A stretch of DNA of 63,615 nt, counting the filler, from Reclinomonas americana ATCC 50394 (Eukaryota), in the NCBI GenBank assembly GCA_048213135.1. It is 20 parts of 20 records of this genome, joined end to end, with 100 filler letters (N's around TTAATTAATTAA, not from the genome) between each part and the next. Parts side by side here need not be neighbours in the genome. Positions count along the whole stretch, not along the records: positions 1 to 3,884 come from AFZH01020555.1; positions 3,985 to 5,726 come from AFZH01020556.1; positions 5,827 to 7,311 come from AFZH01020557.1; positions 7,412 to 8,877 come from AFZH01020558.1; positions 8,978 to 10,858 come from AFZH01020559.1; positions 10,959 to 17,861 come from AFZH01020560.1; positions 17,962 to 19,935 come from AFZH01020562.1; positions 20,036 to 23,354 come from AFZH01020564.1; 12 more parts are not named here. The stretch is one strand, 5' to 3'. Shown piece by piece: positions 10-61,800 of this stretch (its first letter is position 1; each line of letters starts with the position of its first letter). A model generated the notes under the pieces. The model was not told the origin of the DNA, did no database searches, and was given only the letters and a program-made list of their open reading frames with translations. Both the position numbers and the translations under genes were made by a program.

Positions 10-3000
10 GTGTGCGTCTCTCTCACGTGTGCAAGTCTCCACTGTTTGCGATCTGACTGTCTCTCTCTTCACACACACGCAGCATGTGCTTTCAGGAGCT
101 GCCTGCAGGCAACGATGTTGCGCCGCCATTGTGCACACACACACAGTCATCTCTCTGTCTCTTGTGTGACTCTGTGCTTGCACAGGTCCGCGATCTCTAC
201 GTGGGCGCCCTGCGTTGTCTGTACAAGTGCGGGTCAATGACTGGCTTCACGCCACCACCACGAGCACCCGACGACTCGGAAAGTTGCGAGTGCAGTCATC
301 GTCCTTGACTGATTGCTCTCTCTCTCTCTCTGACTCTCTGCACAGCTCCTGCATCGCAGCAACTGCAGGCGCACATTGTGTCCAAGTACGCCGATGAGGT
401 GCTGCTGAATCAGTTTGCGCTGCTCATCGAGCTGCGACTGGTGATGATCATGCTGTTGAGTCTCGTCAACTCTTGGAGCTCCTTCCACTGCTGCTTGATT
501 GATTTATTTCTTCCCCCTGCAGGTATCGCGACTTGCGCTTGTCGCGTGGTGCAGTCGACTATGCAGAGATGGTCCGGCGACTGCAAAGTGTGCGCACCGA
601 TTACGTTCTGAAGCTCACGCATCCGCACATGAAGCCGTTCGGTGACAACATCGAGTTGCGTGCTGTAGCACGCGTTGGCGCACGTGTGTGTGTGCACGTA
701 GTGACCGTGTCTCTCGTGTGCACAGATGGGAGGTCGCTTTCCTGTCGGCGTTCGCCAAGTACGAGGAGTCCATTGCCACGTACTGCTTTACCGATTCCAC
801 GCTGCAGCTGTGGAAGATGAAGCACGCGCTTGCCATGTGGCGCACCACGCACGCCACCAATTTTGCGTTGGCGTACGCACGCGTTCCGTCTCCCGCCGCA
901 TCGCCAGTCGCTCCACGCAAGAGCAAAGGAGCGGTTCGACGATCGGTGCGTCCTCCACATTGTTTCATGCGCGCCTCGTCCGCACCTCACTCTCCTCCCT
1001 CACCTGCAGCTTGGTTCCGCCGATCCACCCAACGACCCCATGCTCAACAATCCGACGCCGGCCGGCTCCAAACTACCCATGCTGCCGCCACCTTCACCTC
1101 GCGCTCCGATACCCACACGCCCACCGGCCCTCGATCACGGCGACGCGCAAGTGACGCTCCCATTGTTGACGTCGGCCATGGACAGCGAGGAAGTTGGAGT
1201 GCACAGCGGTGTCGGCGGCGATGGTGGCGGCGGCATTATCGTGGCTCCGCAGGCGATCCGCGCCGAGTCTATACACATTCCCGAAGGTTCACTTGCGTTT
1301 CCTGCCACATGCTGTGTTGGGTGGGTCATCTCATCAGCCGCTGCAGATCTGGAGGAGGCCGACCACTCACCGGCTCATCTCACATCACTCGATACGTGCC
1401 TGCTGACTCCGGACCAAGCGGGACCCACCAGCCCACCGGCTCGTGTCCGTGCTGCTGCAGCTCGCGCTCAAATCTTGAGTGCAGGGCGTGACGACGAGGT
1501 ACCATCGACTGCGATTCGTGTGTTTTGTCTGCATGCCACATGCTCACTAGTTTCGGTGGCAGGATGTCGAGTCGGACGATGCCGGGTGCAGCAGCGAGGC
1601 GTCGGGACTCAGCTCGGCATCCCGCCCGCTGGTGTCGGTGCTGAAAACATCGCACTCGACCGATGGACTGGCAAACATCGGTGCAGTCGGGGCGCAGGTG
1701 TTGACACCGGCCACTCCCACGAGCGCAGGCGGCAGTGGTGTCGGTTCGAAGCGTCATTCTCTTCTCCCTCTCGAGGTTTGTCCGTGCGCTGATTCGTTGC
1801 ACCGCTGTCTGGTCCCCCCTTCCCCCCCTGCGCAGCTCGACGACGTGTGATGTTCCAGTTGCCGAGTCAAACACCGCCGGCGTCGCCAGGCCGTGGAAGC
1901 GACTCGGTGCCGTCGTCGGCGGTGATGGGAGCTGCTGAACTGGCAAATCGTCGCACGGGATCTCCGGCAGCGTCGGCCGCCGCCGCCGCCATCTCGTCAT
2001 CCATTGTCGGTGCGAGTGATGCGAGTCATGCACGCGCAGAATTGCGGCAATCTCACTGTTTCCATCGCACGCGCGCAGGAAGTACTGCGTCGGCAGCCAG
2101 CAGTGCTGCCGCCATGGTGGCTGCCGCGTCCGCGGACAGCGCCGCCCGTATGATTCGTGGCACACACGCATCCCCTCCTGCGACAAGCAAGAAGTGAGTC
2201 CCTCGGTTGTGGGAATTCACGTAATTTTTGTTGACTGATTGGTTGTTTGCAGCGCCCCACGCGCATCATCGGCACCGCCCATCGATGTGTCGTCCACTGG
2301 ACCCGTTACCTTTGTCGATCGGTGGACGCCCCTCCCGCTGGCGCGCTGGATGTCCACCATGTTCATGTTTGCGCAGAGCAAGTGCACTCTGCTGTACTCG
2401 CGTCTCATCCGACCATTCGAGGGCTCCTTCGACAAGGAACTCGAGTTGGAGAGTGCACGGCCGGGCATTCAGTATCTTGTGTGGTGCGTGTCACACATCA
2501 CACTGGCTTGTGCTATCTCTTCCCTTCTCATTCGTGTTCTCTCCCTCCCTCCCGCAGGGTCGAGTGGTTCTTCCGCACCACCGAGGCGGCACACTTTCTT
2601 CTGATCATGGACTGCCAGGGCTTGTCACGCGTGTCACTGGACGGCTACTTGTGCACACTGCCCAGATACAGCGACGATGCAGAGGACGCCGACGACTATG
2701 GCGACATGCCGCTTACCGGCTTGCGCGCATGGCCAGCAGTGTTTCAGCTGCCCACGGTTTGCTTGCAGACTCTCTCTCGCTCTCTCCCTCTCTCTCTCTC
2801 CTTTTTGTATTCATTCTCCCGCACGCAGGACGTCGCCGTGTCGCCCGCCCATTGGCCCAACATTGTCAGCTTGCTCACGTACCACGCACCGGCACTCGCT
2901 GCTCGCCCGACACCCATCCGGCACGTGGAGGTCTGACAAATCGTCCCCACCCCTCTTTCTTTCCCTCCCACCGCTGTTCTTACCCGAGATGCACCTGAGC

Positions 3001-3236
3001 AGGAACGACCCAAAAACACCTACTTTCTCTCCAAACTCGGCCCCCGTCTCTACGCCGTGTGCGTCTACGACCCGGCTCCGAAAAAGGGCTCGGAGAAAAT
3101 CGTGCACGAATTCCTCACCAACTTCACGTACTGCATGTCGAACACCAAGGGCTTCAGCCTGCTGACCAAGACAGCAGCGGCGGCCACCGCTGCGGCCACT
3201 GCAGTGGCCACACACGAGAAGGGCTCCAAGTCATAG
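10..3236 (+). CDS. KICS2: KICSTOR subunit 2 (C12orf66 family) homologue; multi-exon, 5'-partial, with a long low-complexity insertion (~890-2330)
   Basis: Spliced exons give VRDLYVGALRCL, LLNQFALLIELRLVMIMLYRDL, KLTHPHMKPFGDNIEWEVAFL, LARWMSTMFMFAQSKCTLLY, EWFFRTTEAAHFLLIMD, WPAVFQLP, HWPNIVSLL and TYFLSKLGPRLYAVCVY..EFLTNFTYCMSNTKGF, with stop TAG ending at 3236. These blocks are colinear with human C12orf66 as I recall it (HHPILSPL..FQLEVDVL, YPAVVSLP, HWPNVIMIM, TYFLTRPEPHF). Confidence 0.75.
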
Positions 3237-3302
3237 CAATGAACGTCGCCAGCAAATTGAAGTTGTCCTCTTGTCTCTCTCTCTTTCCCCATCATACGTA
3301 TC

Positions 3303-3751
3303 ATGAGCGACGTGGACTCGCTTCTGCGGCAAGAGTTTGCCACTCGTGCCCGCGTCGATTGGCTCAACTGGTGGAAGGCACAGTCGGGTCGCCGAGTGGT
3401 TCTGCGACTGTACGAAGAGTTGAGTCTGCGCGTCTCTCTCACACACGCACACACTCTGATCTGCATCTCACTCTCTGTGTGTGCATGTGTGTGTGTGCGT
3501 GTGACCATGACAGCATCACTGCAGAGGGAGTGTTCGAGGCCTGCGATGCACCTCTCACAGTGCTGCTCATTTCGCAGCTGCAGACGACGCTGGGCACGTA
3601 TCCGTGGGCCACAATTCGTGTCGCCGATGTGATGGCCTTGGAGTTCATGCCCGCCATCAGTGAGGAAGAAGGGGAGGGAAGGGAGGGCCCTGCAGCAGCA
3701 GCAGCAGCACCCAAGGAAGAGGAGGAGAGAGAAGAGGAAGCGCCCAGATAG
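3303..3751 (+). CDS. GEMIN7: Gemin7-like Sm-fold protein (SMN complex); exons 3303-3418 and 3514-3751
   Basis: Spliced product MSDVDSLLRQEFATRARVDWLNWWKAQSGRRVVLRLYEDITAEGVFEACDAPLTVLLISQLQTTLGTYPWATIRVADVMALEF plus an acidic tail. It matches the Gemin7 pattern (G..V...L.E...V...F.A.D......VS.LQTP.G....A..R..D). Confidence 0.72.
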
Positions 3752-3760
3752 ATTGTAATG

Positions 3761-3884
3761 CTAGTTGTGTTGTTTATTGTTGTTCTTGTTGGTCACCTCA
3801 GGTCGCCGGGGCTGCAGAGACACGAGAGAGTGAGTGCCTTGTCTTTCTCGTTTGATGACAGGCCGTACGCAACATGCCACGTGG
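3761..3884 (-). CDS. Possible 3' end of an unidentified minus-strand gene whose body lies in the gap
   Basis: The minus strand shows CTCAC, a pyrimidine tract and a CAG acceptor near 3812, followed by a short coding-like tail. No family can be assigned. Confidence 0.2.
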
Positions 3885-3984
3885 NNNNNNNNNNNNNNNN
3901 NNNNNNNNNNNNNNNNNNNNNNNNNNNNTTAATTAATTAANNNNNNNNNNNNNNNNNNNNNNNNNNNNNNNNNNNNNNNNNNNN
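3885..3984. other. Assembly gap spacer (N-run, TTAATTAATTAA, N-run). First of 19; others start at about 5727, 7312, 8878, 10859, 17862, 19936, 23355, 26187, 28305, 29814, 35695, 37213, 40920, 45415, 47874, 49449, 51141 and 52764
   Basis: Identical 100-nt cassettes with stops in all six frames. Thiolase coding sequence continues without loss across two of them, so contig order is real there. Other gaps hide exons (MFP Rossmann motif, TBC N-terminal half). Confidence 0.97.
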
Positions 3985-12598: not shown

Positions 12599-13311
12599 GG
12601 GGGAGGGTAAGGGAGAAGGGGGAAGGAGGAAAGGGTGAATGTATGGTGTGATTTTTGTTTGCAATTGATGAGGGGGAATAAGGGTGGAAGGGAGGGTTTC
12701 TTCGCAGGCAGAGCAGAGTGGTGCCCCTTTCATGTGCAAGAGAGGCCAGTGTGATGTTGGAATGATGAATGGACAAGCTCTCCTCTATTCTCCAACAATG
12801 ATGGTGGGTCAACTGAGACCATTTCTTCGCAAGCAGAGCAGACGATGCCTTTCTCTGAGAGCCCAGTGTGATGTCGTGAACGATCAGTGATCCTGCTCCT
12901 CTGAGAACTTCTTGACGGTCTCTCGACGTTTCATCTTGTTCGCCAATGTTTCAACACGCTCATGTCTCAGTGTACATGCGAGCACATGCCTCTCTTCGTG
13001 CGACACTTTATTCTGTCTTGTGAGCCTGCATGCACACCGACGAAGTCATGTCCCACGACTGTCTGACAGAGTGTGATGGGACCTGTGATTTGCTGCTGCT
13101 GTTGAGCAGAAGTGAGCTTGTGTTCCCTGTTCTGCTCTGTGTCACTGTCATTCCCACTGCGTGTGCTTGCAAAGAGAGAGAAAGGAAGGAGAGAGAGTTG
13201 CTGAATTTCTCCGCCATCTTATTGTGACAGAGAGAGAGAGAGAGAGCGTGTTATTCCCCTGTGCATCTGTCAGTGCTGTTGTTGTTGTTCTTCTTGTTGT
13301 GACGCATCATC

Positions 13312-16300
13312 ATGGCGAGCGGGAGTGGAGTGCCGCGTGAGTTGCGTGTCTCTCTTTGTGTTGTTGTCAGATGCATCATCATCATTACTCACATTGTGTG
13401 TGATTCGTTCCTTGTCACTCTCCCCCCCTCCTCTCCTATCGTGCAGTCATCATCACGATGCTGGCGATGAGGAATGCATGATTCGCCTTGCCAAGGCCCT
13501 GTCTCGTCCATGCACCCGCGCTCTGCAGTCCAAACTCGAGCAAGTGCTGCCGGTGTTTCTCGATTCGTATCCCGGTGTGAATCATGTGGCCGAGTGGTGC
13601 AAGGCGCCGAGTGAGCGTGATGTGCGGTGAGTGTGTGTGGGGAAGGATGTGGAGCACACGATGGCAAGATGGAGATGGGAGATGTGAATGTGAGAGAGAA
13701 GAGAACGATTGCCACGAGCAAGCGGCAGCTGGTGACGCACTTGTCATCCCTTTCTCCCCATTCTCGCACTCTTCATTGTCTCACACACAACTCCGCATTC
13801 TATCCCTGATGAATGCCTCCACTTTCTTGTCACACACATCTCCCTCACTCACCAGCATCCTCTCATTCTTTGTGCCCTTCCCCACATGCAGCACTATGCC
13901 GGACGGAGTGGACATGTGTGTTCAGTTGAGCGAGACGGAGCAGCAGACGGTGCGCGAGTGGCGTCAGGGAGGCCAGCTGCACGACTGCAGCTCGTTTGAC
14001 GCGATGCTGTGCTGCTCGATCTTGCTGCTGGCGGGTCATCGAGAGCATCCGAGAGACGAGCCGGATCGTCTGATTCCAGCTGGCGATGTGGTACGTGTGT
14101 GTGAATGAGATGGAAGGAGGAGGAGTGTGATCTCTGTCTTTGTGTGATTGTGTCTCTCACTCCCTCATTGTTCACAGCGCAATTCAATTGAGCGACTGAG
14201 GGTGGTGTTTGAGCAGGCGAGTCCTGCCCGAGCTCGTGCACTCTTTGTGCCTCTGCTCGGTGCCGGAGGAGGAGAGGGCGAGTTACATCGGCTTGTGCGG
14301 CAACTGCAGATTGGCAGGGATGTGGAGGAGGAATTGGCGGTGCAGCTGAACGAGGCTCGTGATGGTGAGTGGAGGGAGAGAGATGGCTTGCGTTTGCGTG
14401 AATGATATGATCGAAGGTGGAAGCTGATGCTGTATTGGTTGTGTGAGAATATAGGTGCACTGAGTCAAGCAGACCTGGCATCGATGGCGGCCAATGTGGA
14501 GCAAGTTGAGTGGATCTGCGAGAATGCGGTGGCTTGCAGATATTGTTGTTTCTCACTTGCTTGTGGCTGGTCAGATGCGAATGGAGATTCAGGCAACGAT
14601 TCGTGCGGAGATGGAAAGTGTGCATCAGCGGCTTGACACAATGAGCATCTCTGCGTCATCTCCCTCAGTCGCTGGTGTGTTCCATGATGGACATGCAATG
14701 CATGTGCATATCTAAGCTCACACCCACTCCTCTCCGTACCACACAGCACCAGTCAGCAGTCTCCCATGCACGACACCGCTCGTTGCCCGCACCGTCAATC
14801 CAGTGACCACATTTCGCTTCCCAAGTCGGCGTGCACTGGCCGCCTCACTTGCCACGCGCGTTGTGGATGCTGTGGAAGGTTGGGTGCTCCTTCTCTTTCT
14901 CCCTTCCTTCCTTCTCCACATTCGTGTGTCTCATCATGTTGCCGGTGGCGGATGATTCCTGCGCAGCACATCAGCCAATCATGGTGGTGCTGACGGGCGA
15001 TGGTGGCACTGGCAAGTCGTTCCTGGCCGAGCTGCTGGTGACCGAGTTGCAGGCCACTCGTCGATGGAAGGGGTCGGCCGTGTCGGTGGAGATGCGCGGT
15101 CATGTGGGTGATGCGAGGGAGCATGTGACGGTGTGTGCTGAGTAACATGCATTTTGTCTTTCATGCTGCGTTATCTCTTCTGCTTTCATGCTGACTCTCT
15201 CTCTCTCTGTTGCCACATTCTGCAGGCGCAGAGTGCTCTGGGCGAGTGTCTGCGTGCCTTTGTGACGGCACAGATGCGAGTGGATGAAGTGGAAGGACGG
15301 AGGATGGCCAGCCAGGTGGATGCGCTGCTGGCGAGTGGCGAGGTGGAGCCAGCACGTCGTCTCCTGCGACAGTTGATGCATGCATCGAGTGGAGTGATCG
15401 TGCTGGACAATGTGGGATCGGCGGAGCAAGTGAGGAGGGTTGTTCAATGTGCTGATGAGGGTTCGTTTCAGGAGAGAGAATTCTCATTCTTGCTCGTATG
15501 TTGGATCCTGACATTGATGTGTAACATCTATGTGTGCCTGCTCAGGTGGAATGGTGGCACCGATTGTGGTGGTGACGAGTCGATATGGACAAGTGGCGGA
15601 TGAGATTCGTGACTTGATAATGCACGAAGCGGAGGTGGAGTGTGTGCGAGTGGAGAATGTGGAGAGCGAGGACATTGTGCAACTGGTCGAGGAGCGACTG
15701 GTTCACAAGGCATCGGAAGATGTGCGACGACGGATTGTGGAGGCACTGGAGAGTGGACAGCAGGAGAAGAGTGCACTGCGAGTGAGTGCTTGTGTTGGGT
15801 GAGTGCTTTGAGTGAGTATGAGTTGCGGATGAGAAGACTCACTCTCTTTTCTCCCTCTCTTCTTGATCATACAGCTGGTTGCTGTCACAGCCAGCAGTTG
15901 AGCTGGCGGGAGCGCGACTGGAAGAGGTGCTAAGTGGCATTGGTGGCGATGCACTGTCACAGCTGCTGGAACGCAATGTGATGTCACAGACAGCAGCAGC
16001 ACGTCGTCTGTTGGTGCTGATCACGGCGTGCAAGGAACTTGGCTTGCCAGTGACAGTGGCACTTGCGCGAGTGGCTCTGGGTGTGTTGCGAGTGATTCCT
16101 GATATGACCACCTCGGGGAGTGTGGATGAAGATGAAGAGGCGGCAAGTCGGCTGGTGGAGTTGGGTCAGTGTGTGCGCCGATTACGACTGCATGGGCTGG
16201 CATGGGAAAGGCGACGGCGTGCACCCGAGGTGGTGGGTGAGCGACTGCAGTTCGACGAGATGAGTCAGGAGGAGGAGCGACGTGTGAATGCAAGGCGTGA

Positions 16301-17708
16301 TGAGTTGGTGGGTGGTGGTGCAAATGGAGTGGAGGATGTGCTGGAGGGTCTGTGTTTGTCGAATCTGGTGACGGTGGGTGTCAGTGGCAGCGTGGACAGT
16401 GTGGCTCGTGTGCTGTGTGGTAAGCAACTGAGAGAGAGTGATGTGGCGATGGAGTATCGAGTGCACGACGAGATTGCTGGGTGGATTGTGAGACGGTGTG
16501 AAGATGCAGTGTCACGGGCGCAGCGACTGATTGTGCGACTGGTGTATTGTGTGCTGAATGGCATCGACTTGCAGAATGACAGTGACGGTGTGTTGTTGGT
16601 GTCGCGTGACGTGCTCGGTGTTCTGCACACAGTGTGGCGACGGTTGGGTGAGGATGACGGCATGTGGGCGAGTGATGTGGTTGGTATGAATGGGCTGCTA
16701 GTGCAGTTTGAAGCAGTCGAGTGGATTGGTGAGCAGTGTGTTTATCAAAAACTGCCGACAGTTGGATTCGATACGGCTGCTGCCTCGTCGCTTGTGCGAC
16801 GTGTGACGGAGTGTAGAGATCGTGGAGGTAGTGATGTTGAATTGAGTCCTGTGCGACGACGGTTTGCGATTGCGGTGGCAAAGTGTCAAGCTTGGTTGCT
16901 TGACTTTCTTTGTTGTCAGTGGGATGAACGTGAAGCTGCGTGGCAACAGGCGTGGCGTTTGTGCGAGGAGTGGGAGAGGGATGACAGTGGCGAGATGACT
17001 GTGCTTGATACGGTGGACGCACTGCGATGCTTGATGTGGTTTGCTTATCATTCAGGCAACTTGCCACTGCTGGTGCAGTGTCATGTGCGGCAGTGTGCGA
17101 CACTGGGTGAGCATCATCCGGACTCTCTGACGACTCTGCATTATCAAGCATTTCATCACTTCTATCGACCGGATTATGCTGATGCGGAGGCGCTCTGGCG
17201 ACGGTGCTGGGAGATGCGACGACTTGGTCTTGGATCTGAGCATCCTGACACATTGGCCTCCATGGGCGGTGTTGCTGCATGTATCCTTGATGGTAGTCGT
17301 CTTGAGGAGAGAATTCAACTTGTACGAGAATGCTTGCAGCTGAAGCGAGCATCGCTGGGAGATCGACATCCGAGCACTCTCACGTCGATGAATAATCTTG
17401 CTTATTCTCTCGCGCAACAAAAAACGTCAGAATCACTGGCAGAAGCTGTTGATTTGTTCCGTCAGTGTTTGGCGGGACGACGTGAGGTACTGGGTGACAG
17501 GCACGAAAGCACATTGTTGACAATGTACAACTACGGTTACCTGCTCATGGAGCAACGACGATGGGACGAGGCTGAGGCACTGCTGGTGGAGTGTGTGGAT
17601 GGCATGCGAGCGGTGCTTGGTGAAGATTATCCGAAGACAGTGCAGGCTATTAAGTGGTTGGAGGAGTGTCGACGACGTGCAAAAAAGGGAAAATGTGTGT
17701 TGCTGTGA
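13312..17708 (+). CDS. NLR-like STAND protein, copy A: N-terminal domain, NB-ARC-type P-loop NTPase, TPR repeats, C-terminal CaaX
   Basis: Walker A VVLTGDGGTGKS (~14984-15020), Walker B VIVLDNV..AEQVR (~15394-15435), sensor-1-like VVVTSR (~15566). Kinesin-light-chain-type TPR units LGEHHPDSLTTL, LGSEHPDTLASM, LGDRHPSTLTSMNNLA, LGDRHESTLLTMYNYG and LGEDYPKT lie in a ~1.8-kb terminal exon ending RRRAKKGKCVLL*. ATG 13312 and the exon structure are shared with copy B. Confidence 0.82.
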
Positions 17709-18195
17709 ACATTGTGAATGAACCTGCTCCCCCTCCCCTTGTTCCCATTGCCAAGAAGCATCCGAGTCGACTTCACCGGAATCCCGGAACTGGCATTCCG
17801 CGTCCTGCAGAGATTATCGCAACAATCCGTCGCTGCACGACCGCGCGCATACTCTCTCTCCNNNNNNNNNNNNNNNNNNNNNNNNNNNNNNNNNNNNNNN
17901 NNNNNTTAATTAATTAANNNNNNNNNNNNNNNNNNNNNNNNNNNNNNNNNNNNNNNNNNNNGCGTTTTCAATCTCAGTTTGCCTTATTTAGTTGTCAGTT
18001 GTCTCTGTTCTTCCCTCTCGCTCTCTTTCTCTTGCTCTCGATTGTTTCTCTCCACTCTCTCCGTTCTCGTCTCTGTTTCTTTCTCTTTCCCATATTCTCT
18101 CTCGCTTTCTTTCTCTTTTTTGCTCTCTCTCCTCTCATCTGTCACTCTCTCTCATCCCTCTCCATTTACCTCACTCACCCTCCTTCGCATCCCAG

Positions 18196-21100
18196 GCGCC
18201 GACTTTGAGCCCTTCATCAGCGAGACGAACGCCGCCCTCAACGCCATCGAGAGCGCCTCGAAGCCGACCGTCGCCGCTCTGGAGACCATGGCCTTCGGTT
18301 CGTGTGCTCGCTCCCTCCGTCATTTCCCCTGCACGATTCTCACCTTTCCCTCCAACAGGTGGTGGCCTCGAGCTCGCCATGTCGTGCCACGCCCGCATCG
18401 CCACTCCGAACACGAACGTCGGCTTGCCGGAGCTGCAGCTGGGCCTGATCCCCGGTTCGTCCCCCTTATGTCCTCTCCCCACTACCGTACTTTTCTGTCC
18501 CTCCTCCGTCTCCTTATTCTCACCTCCCCTCCTCCTCTTCTCACCTCCCCTTCTCCTCATTCCTCCTCCTCCCCCCACTGCCGTACTTCTTCGTCCCTCA
18601 TTCCCCAACCTCACACCCCCTTCTCATTATTTTCACCTCCCCTACTCCTTTTCTCACCTCCTGTTCTCCTTTTTCTCACCTCCCCTTCTCCTTTCGTCAC
18701 CTCCCTTTCTCCTTTTTTTCACCTCCTCTTCTCCTAATTCTCACATCCCCTCCTCCTTATTCTCACCTCCCCTTCTCCTTCTCCTCCCCTCACCTCCCTT
18801 TCTCCTTTTACTCCCCTTCTCTCCTTCCCCTCACTCCCCCCCTTTCCCTTTATAGGCTTCGGCGGCACACAACGCCTCCCCCGCCTGGTGGGCGTGCAAA
18901 AGGCGCTGGAGATGATGCTGTTGTCGCAGCACGTCAAGGCCGCCGACGCGCACAAGATTGGCCTGGTCGACGCCATCACCCGCGACTCGGCCTCCCTGGT
19001 CGCCGACGCCGCCAAGCTGGCGCTCGACATTGCCGCCGGCCGTGTGGCCCGCCGCGAGTCGCTGACGTACACGCGCAAGCTGGAGGCCGCCGGAGTGGTG
19101 TCCATGATTTGCACGGAGGGTGAGTGGGGGGAAAGGGGAAGGGAGGGAGGAAGGGGATGGAAGGGAGAAGGGGATGCTGACGTGAGCTTGCAGCGCGTCG
19201 TCGTGCGGAGAAGGAGAACCCGAATGTGACGCACACGGTCGAGTGCATCAATGTGACGGAGGCGGGAGCCACGCGCGGATCCAAGGCTGGATTGCAAGCT
19301 GTTGCGTAAAAGTACAAGGGATTGTGTTATCCTCTCTCGCTTCCCCTCCGTGTCTCTGTGCCTCCCTCCATGATACTGCATCTCCCTCAGTATCTCTGCT
19401 CCTTTTTCCGTGTCCCTGCGCCTCCCTCCGTGTCGCTGCGCCTCCCTCCGTGTCGCTGCGCCGCCCTCCGTGTCGCTGCGCCTCCCCCCGTGTCGCTGCG
19501 CCTCCCTCTGTGTCCCCGCGCCTCCCTCTGTGTCCCTGCGCCTCCCTCTGTGTCCCTGCGCCTCCCTCCGTGTCCCTGCGCCTCCCTCCGTGTCGCTGCG
19601 CCTCCCCTGTTGTCGCTGCGCCTCCCTAGTTTTCGCTGCGCCTCCCTCCGTGTCGCTGCGCCTCTTTCCGTGTCGCTGCGCCTCTTTCCGTGTCGCTGCG
19701 CCTCTTTCCGTGTCGCTGCGCCTCTTTCCGTGTCGCTGCGCCTCTTTCCGTGTCGCTGCGCCTCTTTCCGTGTCGCTGCGCCTCCCTCTCGTGTCGCTGC
19801 GCCTCTTTCCGTGTCGCTGCGCCTCCCTCTCGTGTCGCTGCGCCTCCCTCTCGTGTCGCTGCGCCTCCCTCTCGTGTCGCTGCGCCTCCCTCTCGTGTCG
19901 CTGCGCCTCCCTCTCGTGTCGCTGCGCCTCCCTCTNNNNNNNNNNNNNNNNNNNNNNNNNNNNNNNNNNNNNNNNNNNNTTAATTAATTAANNNNNNNNN
20001 NNNNNNNNNNNNNNNNNNNNNNNNNNNNNNNNNNNCTCTCCTCCTCTCTCTCTCTCTCTCTCTCCTCTCTCTCTCCTCTCTCTCCTCTCTCTCTCTCTCC
20101 TCCTCTCTCTCTCTCCTCCTCTCTCTCTCCTTCCCTCCTCTCTCTCTCTCACGATTCGTGCGAGCTTATCAACTAATATTCTTCGTTCGTGCAGGCCGTG
20201 CTCGAGAAGCCGACGCTGAAGCAGGACGTGTTTGTGGAGCTGGAGCGCCTGTGCTCGCCGACGTGCGTGCTGGCCTCCAACACCAGCACCATCAGTCTGG
20301 ATGTGATTGCCGCCAAGACGCGCTCGGCGGATCGCATTGTGGGTCTCCACTTCTTCAGGTGAGAGGGGAAAGGGGTGTATAGGGGAGGAATAGGGGAAGG
20401 GGTGTAAAGGGGAAGGGAATAGGAAAGGGAAAGGGAAGAGGGACAGCGATAAGAGGAAGAATGACTGTGAGGGAAGCATTGGCAGCGAGAGCGAGAGGAT
20501 GGATAGCAAGAAAACAGATAGACTGCGATCAGAAGGATGGGCAGGGAAGAGAAAGGTTGGGCTGCGAAGAGAGAGGTGGATCGCGAGGAAAGGGGCTATC
20601 TGCACAGCAGAGAATTGTCAGCGAAGAGAAAATGCTCTGCGAAGAGAGAGGGATAGAATTCGAGGGTAGCAGGTTGGACAAAAGATGTCTTCTGCTCCTG
20701 CACTCACCCTTTTCCCTTTCCCCCGTTTCCCTTTCCCCTCTTCGCGCAGCCCCGCCCACGTCATGCCCCTGCTGGAGATTGTCCGCTCGGACCACACCTC
20801 CGCGCAGGTGCTGGTCGACTCGATCGCCTTTGCCAAGACCATTGGCAAGACGCCGGTGGTGGTCGGCAACTGCGCCGGTTTTGCCGTCAACCGCATCTTC
20901 TTCCCGTACTCGAGGTTTGTCGAAAGGGGGAAGGGAGGGGAAGGGAAGGGGAAGAGTGGGACAAGGAGAGACAGAGAGCGAGAGAATGAGTGTGGAGTGA
21001 GTGAGAGTGTAAGCGGGTGAGGGTTGTTGAGGGAGGGGATGAGTGAGGAAGAAAGAGTGACACAGAGGAAAAGAGAAGGAAAGGAAGGGAGAACGAGAGA

Positions 21101-24100
21101 AAGAAGGACAATGTGTGAGAGTGCGAGAATGAGGGGGTATTATAAATTGAGAGCAAGACGCTAAGAGTGAGAGAGCGAGTGTGCGAGAGAGTGAGAGAGA
21201 GACAGAGCGAGCGACAGTTTGAGAGAAAGAGTGCAAGCATGAGTGTAATTGAGAGAGTGAGAGATAGGATTAGCTTGAAAGAGAGAGTTGGAGAGAGAGT
21301 CTGTGTTTGCGTGTGTGCGAGTTGTTAGCGAAGTGAGCGTGTGAGAGCTTTGCAGTAAGTGCTTGCTGGAATGTGGATTCTGTGTGTGTTTGCTATTGCG
21401 TGTTGGAAGAGTGTATGAGTGTGTGAGTGAGTGTGATTGAGTGCGAAACAGAGGTCAATGCACATTCTACGAATGACTCCTCTCTTGCTCACTTTGTGTC
21501 GCAGCTCGTGCGCCTTCCTCACCGACCGCGGAGTGGAGCCGTACCGCATTGATGCCATTGTGAATGCTTTCGGCATGCCGCAGGGAGTTGCGTTGTTCAT
21601 GGAGACTTTAGTTGTGAGCAGTGCTGACTACCTTGCGCTGCAGCCGTACCGCATGGGCGACATGGCTGGCATTGACATTTTGTACCACGCTCATTGCTTG
21701 ATGGTGAGATGTGAAGCAAATCAAGCATGGTTGATGGTTGCACTCACATTTGTGCACAGGCTGAGGCGTACGGTGCTCGTGCTTACCCGATCCACGCGTC
21801 GGCGCTGATGGTCAAGGACAATCGTCTCGGTTTGTGGTACTCAATGCCAGATGTCTCTGTCCCGTGTCCTCACTCTTCTCTGTTCCCAGGCCAAAAGTCG
21901 GGCGCCGGCTATTACAAGCACGAGAAGGGTGTGCGCGAGGCACCGGCGGATGCGCAGGGCGTGGCGCGCTTCTTGCAGGAGGCTCGTCGTCTGTCGGGCA
22001 ACCCGGAGGTTCGTCTCAAGAGAAGGGGTTGCAATGGCTATTTCCTTACACTCTCCTGTTCGCAGCCGGTGAACTTCACCGACCAGGACATTCTGGAGAT
22101 GGTGTGGTTCAGCGTCATCAACGAGGCCTGCCGTGTGCTGGATGAAGGCATTTGCGTGCGCTCGAGTGACATTGATGTGGCGTCGGTGAGGAGAATAAGG
22201 GAAAGGGAGATCAAGGAAAGAGAGATTGAGTGAAAGGAAAGCAAGGAGGGAATAGGAATGAGAGTGGAAGCAGAGGGCACATGCGGAGTCAGAGAAGACG
22301 CAAAAGATTGGGGAGGGCGAGACGAAGAGGAGAATCAGATGTGAAGTGTTTGTAGGAACGCAATTTGCCCGATGTATTTTGTGTCGCATCACGCACTCAC
22401 GCTCTCTGTTCACTGCAGGTCATGGGCATGGGCTTCCCGTCGTGGCGGTACGTTTGATTATCGATTTGGGTTGTATGTCGTCGTTGTGTGTCTGCCTCTC
22501 CTTGCTCTGTTTGATGGACTGTCGTCTTTGTTTCGATTGTAGTCCTTTTTCCTCTGCTCATACTTGTGCAGCTTGCGTTATCACCGCTCTTGTTTCACGT
22601 CGCCTTGCGCTCAATCCCTGAATTTGTCCTTGTACTTCTTCGCATTGCCCTCTTCCCTTGAATATCCACTTGCTTGTGCTTCTTGCAAACGAAGTTCAAT
22701 ATGCACGGTGACCTTGAACCCTCTCATTTCGGCTCACTCCTTTTTGTTGCCTCGTCTTCTCTGTCCCTCTATTGCCCTTTCCTTCTCGTTATCCCCCTTC
22801 TCCTTCTCTCCCTTTCTTCTCCTTCCCTTCTCCTCACTCCCCCTTTCCCGTGTTGCAGCGGCGGCCTCATCAAGTACGCCGACTCCATCGGCGCCCGCTA
22901 CATCCGCCAGAAGCTCGACGAGTGGCACAACCGCTTCGGCGTCGAGCTCTTCCGCCCGTCGCCCTACCTGGCGCAGCACGCCGACAAGAACGTGCCGCTC
23001 AGCGTCATCCACCCGGGCGACGACGACTCCGACGTTGTGATTGTGGCCTCGTGCCGCACGGCCGTGTGCCGTGCCTTCCGCGGTGGATTCAAGGTTTTGT
23101 GGGGGGCGAAGGGGTTAAGGGGGTTTGGGGAAGGTTCGCTGACGATGAATTGGCAGGACACCGCGCCGGACGTCATGCTCCGTCACGTGTTCGAGGACCT
23201 GCTGCGTCGTGCGCCGCAGGTGAAGCCGGCTGACATTGGTGATATTACTGTTGGTTGTGTGCTGCCGCCGCAGGTGAGAATTATTTCACAAAGGCCATCT
23301 CTCTCTTTCTTGCTCCCCCTTTCGCTCTCCCCCACTCGCTCTCCCCCACTCGCTNNNNNNNNNNNNNNNNNNNNNNNNNNNNNNNNNNNNNNNNNNNNTT
23401 AATTAATTAANNNNNNNNNNNNNNNNNNNNNNNNNNNNNNNNNNNNNNNNNNNNCCCCTCTCCTTCCTTCTCTCGCTCCCCCCTCTCCTTCCTTCTCTCC
23501 TTCCCCCTCTCCTTCCCCCTCTCGCTCCTCCTCTCCCTTGTCGCTTCCCCCTCACCTCTCCCTTTTCCCCCCTTTTCCCTTCTCACACTTTCCCCTTCCC
23601 CCTCTGCAGGGTGGCGTGATCGACGTCCGTGTGGCCGGCCTCATGGCGGGCATCCCGGAGACCGTGCCCGTGCGCACCATCAACCGCTTCTGCTCGTCGG
23701 GCCTGCAGGCCATTGCCGATGTGGCATCGGCGATTCAGGCGGGGTACTACGATATTGGCATTGCGGCGGGAATGGAGAGCATGTCCAGGGTGAGTGAAGG
23801 GAAAGGGGAAGGGAGAAAGAGGAGAATTGTAGAAGGGAAGGGGAAGAAAAGGAGAAGTAGAGTGAGGGAAAAGAGATGGAGAGAGAGAAGGAGGAGAGAA
23901 GGAGAAGCAGAGTGAGCGATAGAGTTGGAGAGAGAAGTGGCGGGTGATACGATAATGCTCTCAATGCGAGAAGGAAAATTTCGATCAAGACCGAGCAAGG
24001 AAGGAAGAGTGAGTAAGAGGAAGGAAGATCGGGAGGGGAAGGGGGAGAGAGAAAGAGCGCGCTGTGGCAAATTTAGGGAGAGTGGCAAAGAAAGTGACTG

Positions 24101-27657: not shown

Positions 27658-27730
27658 ACGCGCGACAGCGCTTTGCTCTTGTGATTCGTGATTGTACTCT
27701 CGCTTTTTTCTTTGGGAATCCGTTCATTGT

Positions 27731-48662
<20,932 letters not shown>

Positions 48663-51131: not shown

Positions 51132-51306
51132 GAGACGAGANNNNNNNNNNNNNNNNNNNNNNNNNNNNNNNNNNNNNNNNNNNNTTAATTAATTAANNNN
51201 NNNNNNNNNNNNNNNNNNNNNNNNNNNNNNNNNNNNNNNNCCCTCCTCCTCTCTCTCTCTCTCTCTCTCCTCCTCTCTCTCTCTCTCTCTCTCCCTGCAA
51301 CGCAAC

Positions 51307-51544
51307 AACCACTCGATCGGGGTACGACGCACTCGGCGCAAAATAAAACCCCGCAGCAGCCAGTGTCTCCGGCGTGGCAAGCCGATACTCAGGATAAGGC
51401 CATCGCGCGTTTCTTACAAAGAGACACAAAGAGAAAGAGAGAGTGAGAGAGTGAGTGAGAGAAGAACGTCGGACAACAACACTGTCCGCTCAACTTGTTG
51501 AACGTCCGCAAACGCACAGACTCAGAGAACATCTGTGTGTTCAT
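51307..51544 (-). CDS. N-terminal half of a BIR (IAP/survivin-type) domain; two exons, 3' part in the gap
   Basis: Spliced MNTQMFSESVRLRTFNKNARWPYPEYRLATPETLAAAGFYFAPSASYPDRVV matches BIR RL.TF..WP....TPE.LA.AGFYF.P....D.V.C. The Zn ligands would be in the missing exon. Confidence 0.82.
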
Positions 51545-52729: not shown

Positions 52730-55435
52730 GGGAAGGAGAGAGAGAGTAGTAGAGAGAGAGAGGNNNNNNNNNNNNNNNNNNNNNNNNNNNNNNNNNNNNN
52801 NNNNNNNTTAATTAATTAANNNNNNNNNNNNNNNNNNNNNNNNNNNNNNNNNNNNNNNNNNNNAGAGAGAGAGAGAGAGAGAAGAAGGGTGGAGGGGGAA
52901 GGGGCGAGAGATGCGGTACATCTGCCCTCGCGTTCCATAGTCCCTTTGTTCTGCTTTCGTTGCACTGTCCCTTTGTTCTGCTTCCCTTTGTTCTGCTTCT
53001 CTCGTTCCGCTGTCCCTTTGTTCTGCTACTCTGGTTCTCCTGTTTGCTGCGATGCGCCGCATTCTTTCCCCCTCTTTTTCTTGCAGCTGCCCTCACTCTT
53101 GTCCTTTCTCTCGTTTCTCTTTCTCATTCTTCCGTCTCCTTATCAATTCCTTTCTCGAGACCGCTGCACTTCTGCTCTTCTCGCGTTCCCTTCCACCCAC
53201 TGCGTCTTTCCCTTCATTGTACCCGTGTGCCCTTCATCGCCTCTATCCGTCCTCCTCTGCCCTTCTTCCACTCTGTATATTCTTCCACCTTCTTTCTCAC
53301 TTCGGCTCACTTCTTTCTGCCGTCATTTTCTGACAAGTGACATTCTCCTCTCCTCCTTTCTCACTTCTGACTCCGTCACCCTCCCGTTTCTCCTTTTTCC
53401 TTCCCCGTTGTCAGTCGTGCCGTTCTCCGTTTCTCTCTGCTTCTTACTTCTGCCGTCCACTCTGCCCAACACCTCATATGTGCCCATTTCCTGCTCCCTC
53501 ACTTCTCGTCTCTTTCCTCACCTCTGTCGTTTCTCGATGCCGTTCTTTTCTCTTCCTTCCGATTCTTACGTCCGCTGTTTTGCTTCCTCCATTCTGCAGC
53601 TCTCCTCCACTGACGCTTTCTGGATTCTGTCCTTCTTCGTCACAGCTGCACTTTACTTTCCTCTCATGTCTGTTCTTCTCCTTCTCTTCTTCTCACAACT
53701 GTTATCACTTGTGCCTTTTTTCTTCCTCCTCCTTTCTCACACTTCTCTTTCCCTCCGTCTCCTCGCCTCTGCCGTTCTCTTTCTCCTCTTCTCTCACTGC
53801 TTCTCTTCTCTTTCCCTCCTTCCTTCTCCCACTTCCGCTTTCTCCTGCTACCCTTCTTTTTACATCTGTCTGTCGCCTCCCATTGTCACCTGTGCCGTTC
53901 TCGCTCATCCTCGAGTTCGCGTTTTCATTCCTTGTCCATGTCCTCCATTTTTTTCTCTTGCGTGCTGTCCTTCTCTCTCGTTTTCTCATTCCTCTGTACC
54001 TCTTATTTCTCACTTCTTCTTCCTCTTCTTTCCTCTTCTTCTTCTCCCTCTCATGGCACTTCTCCTCATTCTCGTGCGCGTCTCATCGCCCCCATCTCAT
54101 CTCGTGCCCTCACCCTTCTCTTGTCACTTCTCCTCTTCCCTCCCCTTCCGCCCTCCTCCCCTTTTCCTTCTCCCTTTCCCTTCTTTCCCCTCTCCCCCTC
54201 TGCAGGTCGACCTGGCCGTCCTGGACGACCTGCTGGCCCGCTTCCACCCTGAACTGCATCGCCACTTGACGCACCACAACGTGCAAATGCCGATTTTCTC
54301 CATGCCCTGGTTCATCACCCTCTTTTGCACGTCGCTGCCCGCCGAGACGACGGCGAGAATATGGGTTCGTCGTTGATTTCCTCTCGTTTTTAGAGGACAG
54401 TGCTCATTCGGCATCACAGGACTTGCTGTTCCTGCACGGCTCACGAATCATATTCAAGTTGCATCGCCACCTTCCGATTTACATCTCCCTTCCCCTCTTA
54501 CCTTCTCCTCTTCGCAGGTGCTCGCTCGCACTCCTCGCCCGCCACCAAGCCGACCTGCTGAAGCTGAGGAACCTCCAGGAACTCGGACCGGCCATCAAGA
54601 TCGCGTGCGTGCGAGTGCGCGATGCCGATGGCCTGGCGCGAGAGATTGTGCGCATGAACAATGTGGAGTGGAATCTCATCCAGCAGCTGCGCGAGCAGCA
54701 CTTGGAGGCGCTGCGGCAGAGTGCACAACGCATGTTGTCGATGCGGGAAGTGGTGGAGTTGGAGCGGAGTACTGGATGTTGCGATTTTGATGGAGTTGTC
54801 ATTCGTGGCGAAGGGACTCATTTTGTGACTGTGGGCAGTCACGGCGGCTGAACTGCGGCGATTGCGGGAGGAGTTTGTCGCGATGAGTGCCGATGGTGTG
54901 GGTATTCACGAGGGGCAGTTCAAGCAGGTATTAGGGTCGATGAATTCGAGGTTTGTAACAGGAGAAGGAGGTGGTGAATGGAAAGAGAGAGGGGGAGAGG
55001 AGAGAGAGAGAGAGGAGGGAGGGAGGAGGGAGGAGGGGAGAAAGTGAGAGTGAATCGCATTGCGAAGATAGAAGATGTTGATTTCACACACGCACACATA
55101 CTGCGCATGTGCAAGCTTGGGTAGGGAGACAGTAATAGAAACAGACCCGGCAGTCCAATCGACGATGCGTTTTATTGTCACCCTGTCAGCACACACGGAC
55201 AACCGCAGGCACAGAGAGAGTGAGAGAGAGAAGATGGTGATTTCACACACGTGCAAGCTTGGGAAGGGAGATAGCAACAGAAACTGACTCATACGTCCTA
55301 TCGAGGAGCTTGTTTGTTTCACCTGAAGGCACACGCACTGCCAAGAGGAAGAGTGTGCGTGTGAATGCTAACGTTTCTCTGTTGAGCTCGGCGCCTTTGT
55401 TGTCACTAGAGGCCATGTATCCTCGCTCAGGGGAG

Positions 55436-58361: not shown

Positions 58362-58842
58362 TAGGAAAGGGAAGTGGAATGAAGGGGAGCATAGTTGGTG
58401 TGATGTCTTGGGTCGATGATGGATGGTGAGAAGACAAACAAGCTTGCTGGTGTTTGTATCAGCGAGTTTTTTCGCAATGACAACGCTCGTCACGGGAGTG
58501 CAGTTTCGTGTTGCGACTTCCCCCTTTGCCGCGCAGACTAAAGGATGGCAAGTACATCTCCTCGGTGACGAAGCACGTAAGAATTCGTGTCCCACGATTG
58601 CCTTATGTGACGGGCCGTGACGGATTTGCTGCTGCTGCTTTGAGCAGAAGTGAGCTTGTGTGTTCTCTGCTGCTCTCTGTCAGCGTCATTCCTCGCTTCG
58701 TGTGTGTGCAAGGGAGAAAGGAGATAAGGAGGAAGAAGGAGAGAGAGTTGTTGAATTTCTCCGCTTCTTATTGTGCCAGAGAGAGCGTGTCATTCTATCT
58801 GTCAGTGTGCTTTTGTTGTTCTTCTTGTTGTGCCGCATCATC

Positions 58843-61800
58843 ATGGCGAGTGGGAGTGGAGTGCCGCGTGAGTTGCGTGTCTCTCTCTCATTGTGTTGTT
58901 GTCAGATGCATCATCGTCATCATTCTCACATTGTGTGATTAGTTCTCTCTCTCCTTTCTCGCGCAGTCATCATCACGATGGTGTTCCTGGCGATGAAGAA
59001 TGCGCAATCCGTCTTGTCAAGGGACTGTCTCGTCCGTGCACCCGCGCTCTGCAATCCAAACTTGAGCAAGTGCTGCCGGCGTTTCTCGATTCGTATCCTG
59101 GTGTGAATTATGTCGATGAGTGGTGCAAGCCGCCGAGTGAGCGTGATGTGCGGTGAGTGTATGTGGGGAAAGGGGAAGCACGCGATGGCAAGATGCAGAT
59201 GGAAGAGAAGAGAAAAGATTGCCACAAGCAGTGGCAGCTGGTGATGCACAGGTTATCCCTGTCTCCCCATTCTCACCCTCTTCTTTGTCTCACCACACGA
59301 TTCCAAATTTTATCCCAATGAACTCCTCTCTTTCTTGTCACACACATTCCCTCACTCACCACCATCCTCATTTCTTTGTCGCCCTTCCCCACATGCAGCA
59401 CCATGCCAGTCGGATTGGACATGTGTGCCCAGTTGAACGAGAAGGAGCGGCAGACGGTGCGCGAATGGCGTCAGCGAGGCCAGCTGCATGACTGCAGTTC
59501 GTTTGATGCGATGCTGTGCTGTTCGATCTTGCTGCTGGCGGGTCATCGAGAGCACCCGAGAGACGAGCCGGATCGTCTGATTCCCGCGGGCGATGTGGTG
59601 CGTGTGTGGGAATGAGAAGGGGATGGGAAGAAGGAAGAGTGGGATCTCTCTCTCTCTCTCTCTCTGCGTGATTGTGTCTCTCACTCTTTGATTGTCACAG
59701 CGCAATGCAATTGAGCGACTGCGGGAGGTGTTTGAGCAAGCGAGTCCCGCACGAGCTCGTGCACTCTTTGTGCCTCTGCTTGGTGACGGAGGAGGAGGAG
59801 AGGGCGAACTGCATCAGCTTGTGCGACGACTGCAGATTGGCAGGGATGTGGAGGAGGAATTGGTGGTGCAGCTGAACGAGGCTCGTGATGGTGAGTGGGA
59901 TGAGAGAGATGGCTGGTGCTTGTGTGTCTGGATGATTTGGTTGAATGTGGAAGCTGATGCTGTCTTGATTGTGTGTGAATGCAGGTGCACTGAGTGAAGC
60001 AGACCACGCATCGATAGCGGCCAATGTGGAGCAAGTTGTGTGGATTTGCATGAGGGGGCGGGCAATTGAAGATGGCTCATTGTTTCTCACTTTCTTGTGA
60101 TGGATCAGATGCGGATGGAAATGCACCATCGTCTTGACGCAGTGACCATCTCGCCCTCTTCTCCCTCAGCTGCTGGTGTGTTCCATGATAGACCTGCATT
60201 CGAATGTGCATTGCTGTGCTCACTCCTCTCTGTGCCACACAGCACCAGACAGCAGTCGCCCACCCAAGACACCTCTCATCACCCGCACCGTCAATCCAGT
60301 GACCACATTCCGCTTCCCGAGTCGACGTGCACTGGCTTCGTCACTCGCCGGGCGCATTGTGGATGCTTTGGAAGGTTGGATGTTCCTTCTCTTCCTCCCT
60401 TCCTTCTTCCACATTCATGTGTCTCATCGTGTTGTCTGGTGCTGATGATTCTTGCGCAGCACACCGTCCAATCATGGTGGTGCTGACGGGCGATGGTGGC
60501 ACTGGCAAGTCGTTCCTTGCTGAGCTGCTGGTGACTGAGTTGCTGGCGACTCGTCGATGGAAGGGATCAGCCATGTCGGTGGAGATGCGTGGTCATGTGG
60601 GTGATGCGAGGGAGCATGTGAAGGTGTGTTGAGGAACATGCATGTTTTCTTTCATGATGCTGTCATTCCGACTCTTTCTCCATGCCAAATGCTGCAGGCG
60701 GAGAGTGCTCTGGGTGAGTGTCTGCGTGCCTTTGTGACGGCGCAGATGCGAGTGGATGAAGTGGAGGGACGAATGATGGCGGGCCAGGTGGATGCTCTGC
60801 TGGCGAGTGGCGAGGTGGAGCCAGCACGTCGTCTTCTGCGACAGTTGATGCATGCATCGAGTGGAGTGATGGTGCTGGACAATGTGGGATCATCGGAGCA
60901 AGTGAGGAGTGTTGTTCAGTGTGCTGATGAGGGTGCGTGTGTCGTGAGTGAGAATTCTCATACTTGCTTGGATGTTGGATCCTGACTTGATGTGCATCAT
61001 GTGCGTGCCTTTGTGCAGGTGGCCTGGTGGCACCGATTGTTGTGGTGACCAGTCGATATGAACGAGTGGCAGATGAGATTCGGGACTCGATGATGCACGA
61101 GGCGGAGGTGGAGTGTGTGCGATTGGAGAATGTGGAGAACGAGGACATTGTGCAGCTGGTGGAGGAGCGACTACGCCACAAGGTGTCAGGAGATGTGCGA
61201 CGACGAATTGTGGAGGCGCTGGAGAGTGGACAGCAGGAGAAGAGTGCACTGCGAGTGAGTGCTTGTGTTGGGTGAGTGATTGTGATCGTGTGAGTGGCGC
61301 GGATTAGAAGACTCACTCTTCTCTCTTTCTCTTCTTCATCATGCAGCTGGTTGCTGTCACGGTCAGCAGCACAGCTGGTGGGCGCGCGACTGGAGGAAGT
61401 GCTGAGTGGCATTGGTGGCGATGCGCTGTCGCAGCTGCTGGAACGGAATGTGATGTCGCAGACAGCAGCAGCGCGTCGTCTGTTGGTGCTGATCACGGCG
61501 TGCAAGGAGCTCGGCGTGCCGGTGACAGTGGCACTTGCGCGAGTAGCTCTGGGTGTGTTGCGAGTGATACCCGATGTGGCGGTGGTTGTGGATGGTGATG
61601 GTGATGCAGATGAGGAGGCGGCAAGTCGACTGGTGGAGTTGGGTCAATGTGCGCGTCGACTGCGACTGCATGAGCTGGCGCAGGAGAGGCGATGGCGTGC
61701 ACCCGAGGTGGTGGGTGAGCGACTGCAGTGTGACGAGATGAGTGTGGTAGAGGAGCAGCGAATGCGTGCGCGGCGTGATGAGTTGGTGGGTGTTGGTGGT

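Follow-up and report, generated by a model that had tools for sequence, protein, structure and literature searches.

Two ways in which U1 can pair with a 5' splice site outside its usual register have been experimentally established in human and come close to the donors described here. Tan et al. (2016, PMC4856993) present them as the +1 shifted register, citing Roca and Krainer (2009), and the +2/+3 bulge register (their Fig. 1C and Table 3), citing Roca et al. (2012). Human shifted and bulged registers range from a few dozen to a few thousand sites. By the figures given in that article, the +2/+3 bulge was predicted at 68 sites, of which 54 were left after curation, among 201,541 5' splice sites (about 0.03%), and 1.5% of 5' splice sites in human use one of the validated non-canonical registers (PMC4856993). 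Here, we analyzed a stretch of 63,615 nucleotides (nt) from the genome of Reclinomonas americana ATCC 50394, referred to below as the window, which comprises around 20 contigs of 1.4-10.7 kb with a G+C content of about 0.54. Its introns include an abundant class of 5' splice sites, here termed class donors, in which the usual signal sits one base further downstream behind an extra T.

The window is intron-rich. Most introns are 50-110 nt long, a second group of 230-750 nt is often GA-rich, and the introns carry CTSAC-like branch motifs and a CAG 3' end. In what follows, H stands for a base other than G and M for A or C, and a slash outside brackets marks the exon-intron junction. In the class donors, cleavage stays before the first GT, and the distance from there to the GMGT block is one base longer than usual.

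An earlier note on this DNA had listed 22 such donors. All of them begin with GTTG, 21 on the strand given there; the one at 51306 had been listed as plus and lies on the minus strand (51300-51306). The note had further claimed that the last exon base is never G, that G is lost at +5 and that it usually sits at +6. These claims hold for the listed sites: -1 is A in 12, T in nine, C in one and G in none; +5 is C in 17, A in four, T in one and G in none; and +6 is G in 21 of 22. Position +7 is T in 17 of 22 and +4 is G in 22 of 22, the latter partly a consequence of how the sites were chosen. In 27 ordinary donors supported by homology, module or paralogue comparison, +5 is G without exception and -1 is G in 24, the remaining three all belonging to the three-module gene described below. 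Supported GTTG donors have G at -1 in 0 of 11 cases versus 24 of 27 ordinary ones (Fisher test, p = 3e-7). Sliding the donor by one base reproduces the ordinary profile (G at +6 in 21/22 against G at +5 in 24/24, and T at +7 in 17/22 against T at +6 in 19/24; ordinary set n = 24), a match that was scored against the organism's own donor consensus and not against its U1. The class variants GTTGAGT, GTTGCGT, GTTGTGT and GTTGCGA likewise mirror the ordinary donors GTGAGT, GTGCGT, GTGTGT and GTGCGA. The earlier note had made the class stand or fall with an excess over what a degenerate donor consensus predicts. Such an excess is present: under an independent-position model of ordinary donors, the combination of T at +3, G at +4, M at +5, G at +6 and T at +7 has a probability of 1.4e-5 per donor. 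Over both strands, GTTGMGT matches 35 times compared with 17.42 +/- 4.44 expected from 100 dinucleotide shuffles, one of which reached 35.

Junctions were placed independently of the donor signal by a spliced protein-to-DNA aligner whose only splice-site rule is GT...AG, the rest of the donor being left unscored. It was supplied with 26 homologues of a multifunctional protein (MFP), 40 of thiolase and 80 of TBC proteins. The first two sets belong to a single gene at 17962-27700 (plus strand), in which an MFP of beta-oxidation (ECH + 3HCDH) is fused in frame to 3-ketoacyl-CoA thiolase; the third belongs to a RabGAP-TBC gene. The following introns are relevant:

21587-21643, plus strand: intron of 57 nt, donor A/GTTGCGT, MFP part; 25 of 26 homologues, and 20 of 20 with GC donors allowed.
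24345-24400, plus strand: intron of 56 nt, donor T/GTTGCGT, thiolase part; 29 of 40 homologues.
23094-23156, plus strand: intron of 63 nt, donor G/GTTTTGT, a related variant that shares G at +6 and T at +7 and differs by G at -1; 31 of 40 thiolase homologues.
19301-19390, plus strand: intron of 90 nt, donor T/GTTGCGT, MFP part; chosen by a donor-blind gene finder, the homologue alignments ending here.
54458-54517, plus strand: intron of 60 nt, donor A/GTTGCAT, RabGAP-TBC gene; 67 of 80 TBC homologues, and 26 of 40 with GC donors allowed.
54778-54838, plus strand: intron of 61 nt, donor T/GTTGCGA, RabGAP-TBC gene; 5 of 80 homologues.

Spliced alignment recovered 19 introns in the MFP-thiolase gene. 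Sixteen have ordinary donors (GTGAGT/A/G, GTTCGT, GTTTGT, GTACGT, GTGTGT and GTGCGA), all with G at -1 and +5. The other three, 21587, 24345 and 23094, lack G at +5; each carries G at +6 followed by T at +7. Between the exon that the strong intron 23790-24279 fixes and the conserved MGIT frame, no GT other than 24345 has the phase that is needed. In the TBC gene, the junction IIFK/CSLALL at 54458 is gapless against the homologues, and the ordinary GTTCGT donor at 54365 was recovered with 74 of 80 of them. The five homologues that support 54778 include the best-scoring ones with the C-terminal EF-hand part (P0338, P0385, P0361 and P0375); no TBC homologue of near length was found, and the exon after 54517, taken alone, matched no TBC structure. 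The four listed donors 21587, 24345, 54458 and 54778 are thus pinned by alignment to foreign homologues.

A second line of evidence is internal to the window. The gene at 31083-35694 (minus strand) is built of three modules in tandem whose domains are CHB_HEX_C_1/Fn3_assoc-like, a type annotated mostly in bacteria. Each module has three homologous intron positions. At position A (junction TVT/Y) the donors are T/GTGCGT at 34343 in module 0, T/GTGCGT at 33169 in module 1 and T/GTTGCGT at 31805 in module 2, so that the ordinary and the extra-T form occur at the same junction. Position B has T/GTTGCGC at 34146 (module 0), T/GTTCGT at 32970 (module 1) and C/GTTGCGT at 31606 (module 2). Position C, which precedes QFPSPPTF, has A/GTTGCGT at 33978 (module 0), A/GTTGCGT at 32803 (module 1) and T/GTTGCGT at 31443 (module 2). 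The class members among these are:

31749-31805, minus strand: intron of 57 nt, donor T/GTTGCGT, module 2, position A; module homology, with the identical junction TVT/Y in copies 0 and 1.
31552-31606, minus strand: intron of 55 nt, donor C/GTTGCGT, module 2, position B; module homology.
34093-34146, minus strand: intron of 54 nt, donor T/GTTGCGC, module 0, position B; the sole donor/acceptor pair giving an MSGQ stretch that matches copy 1.
33421-33978, minus strand: intron of 558 nt, donor A/GTTGCGT, module 0, position C; the junction before QFPSPPTF recurs in the modules.
32051-32803, minus strand: intron of 753 nt, donor A/GTTGCGT, module 1, position C; the junction equals that of 33978 and the module is then open.
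31437-31443, minus strand: donor heptamer T/GTTGCGT, module 2, position C; the exon end is homologous to those at 33978 and 32803.

With these six listed donors in place, every module stays open and aligns with its sisters. All three copies retain the heptamer at position C while the exon DNA before it and the intron beyond +7 have diverged, which argues for constraint on the heptamer. All nine module-gene donors follow a base other than G.

Two paralogous genes with TPR_10/TPR_12 domains and a long last exon lie in a segmental duplication of 4.6 kb (13042-17682 and 58581-63130, plus strand; 81% identical, introns included), referred to here as TPR genes A and B, and contribute four sites:

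13341-13446, plus strand: intron of 106 nt, donor A/GTTGCGT, first intron of TPR gene A, an addition to the earlier list; donor-blind finder and paralogue.
58872-58966, plus strand: intron with the same GTTGCGT donor in TPR gene B; 81%-identical duplicate and two-register run.
14505-14511, plus strand: donor heptamer A/GTTGAGT, TPR gene A; paralogue indels begin right after it, partial support.
60035-60041, plus strand: donor A/GTTGTGT, TPR gene B; paralogue comparison and two-register run, partial support.

For 13341, the reading frames, together with mismatches at third positions relative to the paralogue, call for a phase-2 donor; if the GTGAGT at 13337, which overlaps it, were used, a stop would follow, as judged by reading the sequence and not by computation. 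The overlapping pair of GTGAGT and GTTGCGT donors (GTGAGTTGCGT) is kept in both paralogues (13337-13347 and 58868-58878, plus strand), and, provided that translation starts at the first ATG, only the second donor in GTGAGTTGCGT suits the frame downstream. At 14505 and 60035, paralogue indels of 2, 2 and 33 nt just past the motif show that an intron begins there. The exon chain around them is ambiguous: 10,537 solutions of GT-AG chains are open in both paralogues over 14178-14969. The class is conserved through gene duplication.

Further support came from a gene finder that was blind to the donor: donors received a flat score, and its seeds were verified exons, acceptors and intron composition only. 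It recovered 8-10 of 17 verified introns, and the 753-nt intron at 32803 was missed owing to a finder limit of 700 nt. Its 67 predicted short introns comprise 38 with G at +5, eight GTTG[AC]G and 21 others, most of them probably errors. GTTG[AC]G thus accounts for 8 of 67 donor-blind donors against 1.5% of GT sites (101/6683; binomial p = 8e-6) and, among the 29 donor-blind donors without G at +5, for eight against 2.1% of such GT sites (p = 1.2e-7). We also ran a two-register model in which the ordinary donor matrix, slid by one base, served as a second register, with no training on GTTG sites. In this run 21 of 150 introns used the slid register, three of them doubtful (GTTGCTG, GTTATGT and GTTTTTT); the total parse score rose from 2855.3 to 2917.8, and 13 of 17 verified introns were recovered versus 12 of 17 with ordinary donors only. 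A branch motif followed by YAG at 45-130 nt was found for 12 of 33 GTTG[AC]GT sites, 23 of 70 G/GTKHGT sites and 1085 of all 6598 GT sites (16.4%). A strict acceptor matrix built on 19 sites had too little power, scoring only 14 of 85 GTGAGT sites. Fully unsupervised gene finding with a flat donor was abandoned: misled by GA-rich long introns, it drifted onto antisense GA-rich pseudo-introns. The long introns 23790-24279, 20359-20749 and 26802-27504 (plus strand) are GA-rich on the sense strand, with GGGAAGG/GAGAGA runs, and short introns are CT-rich.

The claim that the class serves a substantial minority of introns is borne out by 8 of 67 donor-blind introns, 21 of 150 two-register introns and 11 of 38 supported introns, the last figure being inflated by the three-module gene. 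Within this one 64-kb window, the class roughly serves 10-20% of introns. The claim that it extends across nearly all genes stands insofar as class donors are present in around eight genes, the basis being a single 64-kb window. The sites outside the genes treated so far are:

117-185, plus strand: intron of 69 nt, donor T/GTTGCGC, an addition to the earlier list; donor-blind finder.
283-345, plus strand: intron of 63 nt, donor A/GTTGCGA; donor-blind finder in the first pass only, and two-register run.
455-522, plus strand: intron of 68 nt, donor T/GTTGAGT; donor-blind finder.
655-725, plus strand: intron of 71 nt, donor A/GTTGCGT; donor-blind finder.
37519-37573, minus strand: intron of 55 nt, donor A/GTTGCGT; donor-blind finder, flanking open frames of 133 and 68 codons.
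38896-38947, minus strand: intron of 52 nt, donor T/GTTGCGT; donor-blind finder.
3419-3513, plus strand: candidate intron of 95 nt, donor A/GTTGAGT, Gemin7-like gene; the phase suits the acceptor at 3513.

Five of the listed donors, 455, 655, 37573, 38947 and 19301, were thus chosen by the donor-blind finder, which also picked the homology-pinned donors 24345 and 54458. Four others fared less clearly: 283 appeared in the first pass only, 14505 and 60035 have partial support, and 3419 fits in phase but has a rival, the in-phase ordinary donor G/GTACGA at 3410, 9 nt upstream. No support was gained for A/GTTGCGG at 47551-47557 (minus strand), where the acceptor options are long and weak only, for A/GTTGAGC at 51488-51494 (minus strand), where no acceptor passed the filter, or for T/GTTGCGT at 51300-51306 (minus strand). 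Taken over the 22 listed donors, four are supported by external homology, six by module homology, five by the donor-blind finder and one by its first pass only, two partially, one is ambiguous and three are without support.

As expected of U2-type GT-AG introns, the homology- and module-pinned junctions restore the reading frame. In a set of 18 class introns, CTCAC, CTGAC or CTTAC lies 10-25 nt before the terminal CAG, as in verified ordinary introns, and the usual pyrimidine tract is present as well. We consider it probable, though by no means certain, that the class introns are ordinary GT-AG spliceosomal introns whose signal is displaced one base by an extra T and would be read by U1, and possibly U6, in a shifted or bulged register. 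The earlier note had proposed a shifted U1 register or a variant U1/U6. What stands of that proposal is that the class is real, abundant and displaced by one base with cleavage at the first GT; as to U1 and U6, we infer the pairing mode from the donors.

In such a scheme, the organism's normal donor G/GT(G/T)(A/C/T)GT would be displaced downstream to give H/GT-T-G(C/A)GT. The same U1 5' end would then pair in a register shifted by +1, in which G+1 would replace the missing -1 G opposite C9 of U1, U+2 would be mismatched, and +3 to +7 would pair as +2 to +6 usually do. In the alternative register, one of the two U's would be bulged. U6 would tolerate the same one-base offset or would pair less. 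U6, U5 and Prp8 would then set the cleavage site. The class form goes with exons not ending in G and may have originated by a single T insertion inside the intron of an H/GTGCGT (H/GTGMGT) donor; since the insertion lies inside the intron, the reading frame is untouched. The sequence is compatible with the +2/+3 bulge as well. That -1 is never G (0/22) is used by the shift model and not required by the bulge model, and GTTTTGT after G at 23094 fits a bulge better than a shift. The two registers are not separable from the sequence alone. A search for small nuclear RNA (snRNA) genes found no Rfam family in the 64-kb window.

Several observations weigh against a shifted or bulged reading by the standard snRNAs. 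C outnumbers A at +5 by 17 to 4 in the class, while in ordinary GTG donors A outnumbers C by 10 to 3 (p = 0.0014, with counts that are partly non-independent). T at +4 is nearly absent from the class though T at +3 is common in ordinary donors (9/24), and the common GTT(C/T)GT donors have almost no shifted counterparts, the one GTTTTGT following G. The donor at 54458 (GTTGCAT) has G at neither +5 nor +6. By a hand count of standard U1 pairs, H/GUUGCGU pairs no better than H/GUGCGU, yet where the last exon base is not G the form with the extra U prevails (11 versus 3); without a gain in pairing, U1 pairing alone does not explain this dominance. The counts are moreover inflated by duplication (three modules and one paralogue pair). 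Finally, when GC donors and introns of 30 nt were made cost-free, only 5 of 20 homologues kept 24345; ten of 20 moved to a 36-nt GC-AG intron at 24365 that has no donor consensus, and three of 20 to a GC site 3 nt downstream of 24345. The former we judge spurious because reaching it needs a different upstream frame, as judged by reading and not computed. The latter fits in length too, as homologue spacing varies between 24 and 28 residues (hand count).

The missing gain in pairing, the preference for C, the near-absence of GTT(C/T)GT shifts and the donor at 54458 are not explained by a slid register, and they keep another reading in play that we regard as unlikely: a dedicated variant snRNA with a 5' end that would pair continuously with GUUGCGU, namely a second U1 and perhaps also a variant of U6. 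The heptamer is sharp enough for such a partner (G at +4 in 22/22, partly by selection, and at +6 in 21/22), the excess of C over A at +5 would fit GCG pairing with a complementary snRNA stretch, and the full GTTGCGT is kept in three of three modules at position C. Against such a partner, GTTGAGT, GTTGTGT, GTTGCGA, GTTGCGC and GTTGCAT are in use too and mirror the spectrum of ordinary donors; at one intron position GTGCGT and GTTGCGT can replace each other, and no snRNA gene was found in the 64 kb searched. A related and likewise doubtful proposal is that the major spliceosome of this lineage uses two parallel donor codes, in which exons ending in G would take G/GUKHGU and all others H/GUUGCGU, read by a second U1 variant (possibly also U6) complementary to GUUGCG or by a U1 obligatorily anchored at C9.

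Duplication might also have produced the class, a few ancestral GTTGCGT introns having been copied with genes, modules or a mobile intron family without any special function. Six supported sites do lie in the three tandem modules of one gene, and two pairs in the 81%-identical segmental duplicate. Yet the class occurs in around eight unrelated genes, nothing is shared past +7 among 18 class introns, the heptamer at position C is kept while neighbouring DNA diverged, and at position A GTGCGT changed to GTTGCGT after duplication, so that duplication alone is an improbable explanation. Its mobile variant, a family of introner-like elements, was rejected. The 18 class introns share their first 7 bases only and have the lengths (52-106 nt and two long ones) and 3' signals of ordinary introns, which argues against such a family. 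We also rejected pairing of the intron 5' end to a complement within the same intron: a match of at least 6 nt was found in 0 of 18 introns, and there was one match of 5 nt. The intron from 31443 (31396-31443, minus strand), which lies outside these 18, shows by eye, some 37 nt further downstream, an inverted complement that matches its first 8 bases perfectly.

It is very improbable that the junctions were mis-called and that the true donors lie nearby, be it a GC-AG donor 3 nt downstream (GTT/GCGT) or another GT. GTTGCGT does hold an in-phase GC at +4, the variable spacing of homologues allows one extra residue at 24345, and 3419 has the in-phase ordinary donor 9 nt upstream. With GC donors cost-free, however, 21587 was retained with 20 of 20 homologues and 54458 with 26 of 40, and no GC rival reached three votes at either. 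In the modules, a GC donor at positions A and B would bring in a residue that the sister copies lack (by reading), and GTTGAGT and GTTGTGT have no GC at +4 at all. The GC-AG donor three bases downstream was accordingly rejected, with 24345 (3/20) as the only site still compatible with it. That there is no separate class, GTTGMGT being one of many strings tolerated by a loose consensus, is scarcely credible and already contradicted by donor profile and statistics: ordinary donors often carry T at +3 (9/24) and weak donors are found among the verified ones (GTGAGA, GTGCGA and GTTGCAT), but +5 is G in 27 of 27 supported ordinary donors, the heptamer is expected at 1.4e-5 per donor, 8 of 29 donor-blind donors without G at +5 are GTTG[AC]G against 2.1% (p = 1.2e-7), and the class is coupled to a non-G base at -1 (p = 3e-7).

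Some features of the window and its genes are recorded here in their own right. The contigs are separated by spacers of the form N44-TTAATTAATTAA-N44, at 3885-3984 and 18 further places, and genes run on in order across them; the window is a scaffold of ordered contigs, and the linker between them is artificial and stops all frames. In the MFP-thiolase gene, exon 22859-23093 leads from the MFP C-terminus directly into the thiolase N-terminus. The same fusion is found in transcripts of Heterolobosea sp. BB2 (P0125 and P0241) at 54% identity, and green-plant homologues reach 46-51%; the best thiolase and MFP matches in the protein collection are about 50-57% identical. When metagenomes were scanned for a relative of the MFP-thiolase exon, the one locus returned (L001, 38% G+C) was unrelated. 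The small Gemin7-like gene that contains 3419 (3303-3748, plus strand) encodes an SMN-complex component and adjoins the first gene. Its exon 2, from 3515, matches positions 34-76 of the PF11095 profile, and exon 1 alone found no match in Pfam or among solved structures.

Word searches of titles and abstracts in the literature returned no report of a lineage with an abundant class of shifted or bulged donors. What appears to be new is the abundance: a donor type so far known as a human rarity here serves roughly 10-20% of introns. For annotation, this means that gene finders with a single donor matrix will mis-splice class introns in this genome, as the ordinary-donor-only run, with fewer verified introns and a lower score, illustrates. 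The organism would be a natural system for asking how a cleavage site can be set without regard to U1 pairing, whether an offset of one base is tolerated by U6 and how donor codes co-evolve with the last exon base. If the genome did use two donor codes, the cleavage position would no longer depend on the U1 register in at least one intron in ten.

Compared with the systems described in human, the class resembles +1 shifted sites in that the block behind the cleavage-site GU fits the consensus only after a slide of one base. As in the human shifted register, cleavage stays at GU, and here the absence of G at -1 (0/22) would let G+1 face C9 of U1. Unlike the human shifted sites, which are rare curiosities, the class accounts for about 10-20% of introns, and its consensus is GUUG(C/A)GU with C preferred. 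With the human +2/+3 bulge it shares two U's after G+1, one of which could be bulged so that +4 to +7 would pair like +3 to +6; in contrast to that register, which covers 54 of 201,541 sites, it makes up between 8 of 67 and 21 of 150 predicted introns. Compared by eye, the class donors are unlike the U12 donor consensus. The class also differs from the GC-AG and U12-type minority classes in that its dinucleotides are the canonical GT-AG and its branch and acceptor signals are like those of other introns. Like GC-AG and U12-type introns, it represents a distinct, recurrent and conserved non-standard donor in a minority of introns.

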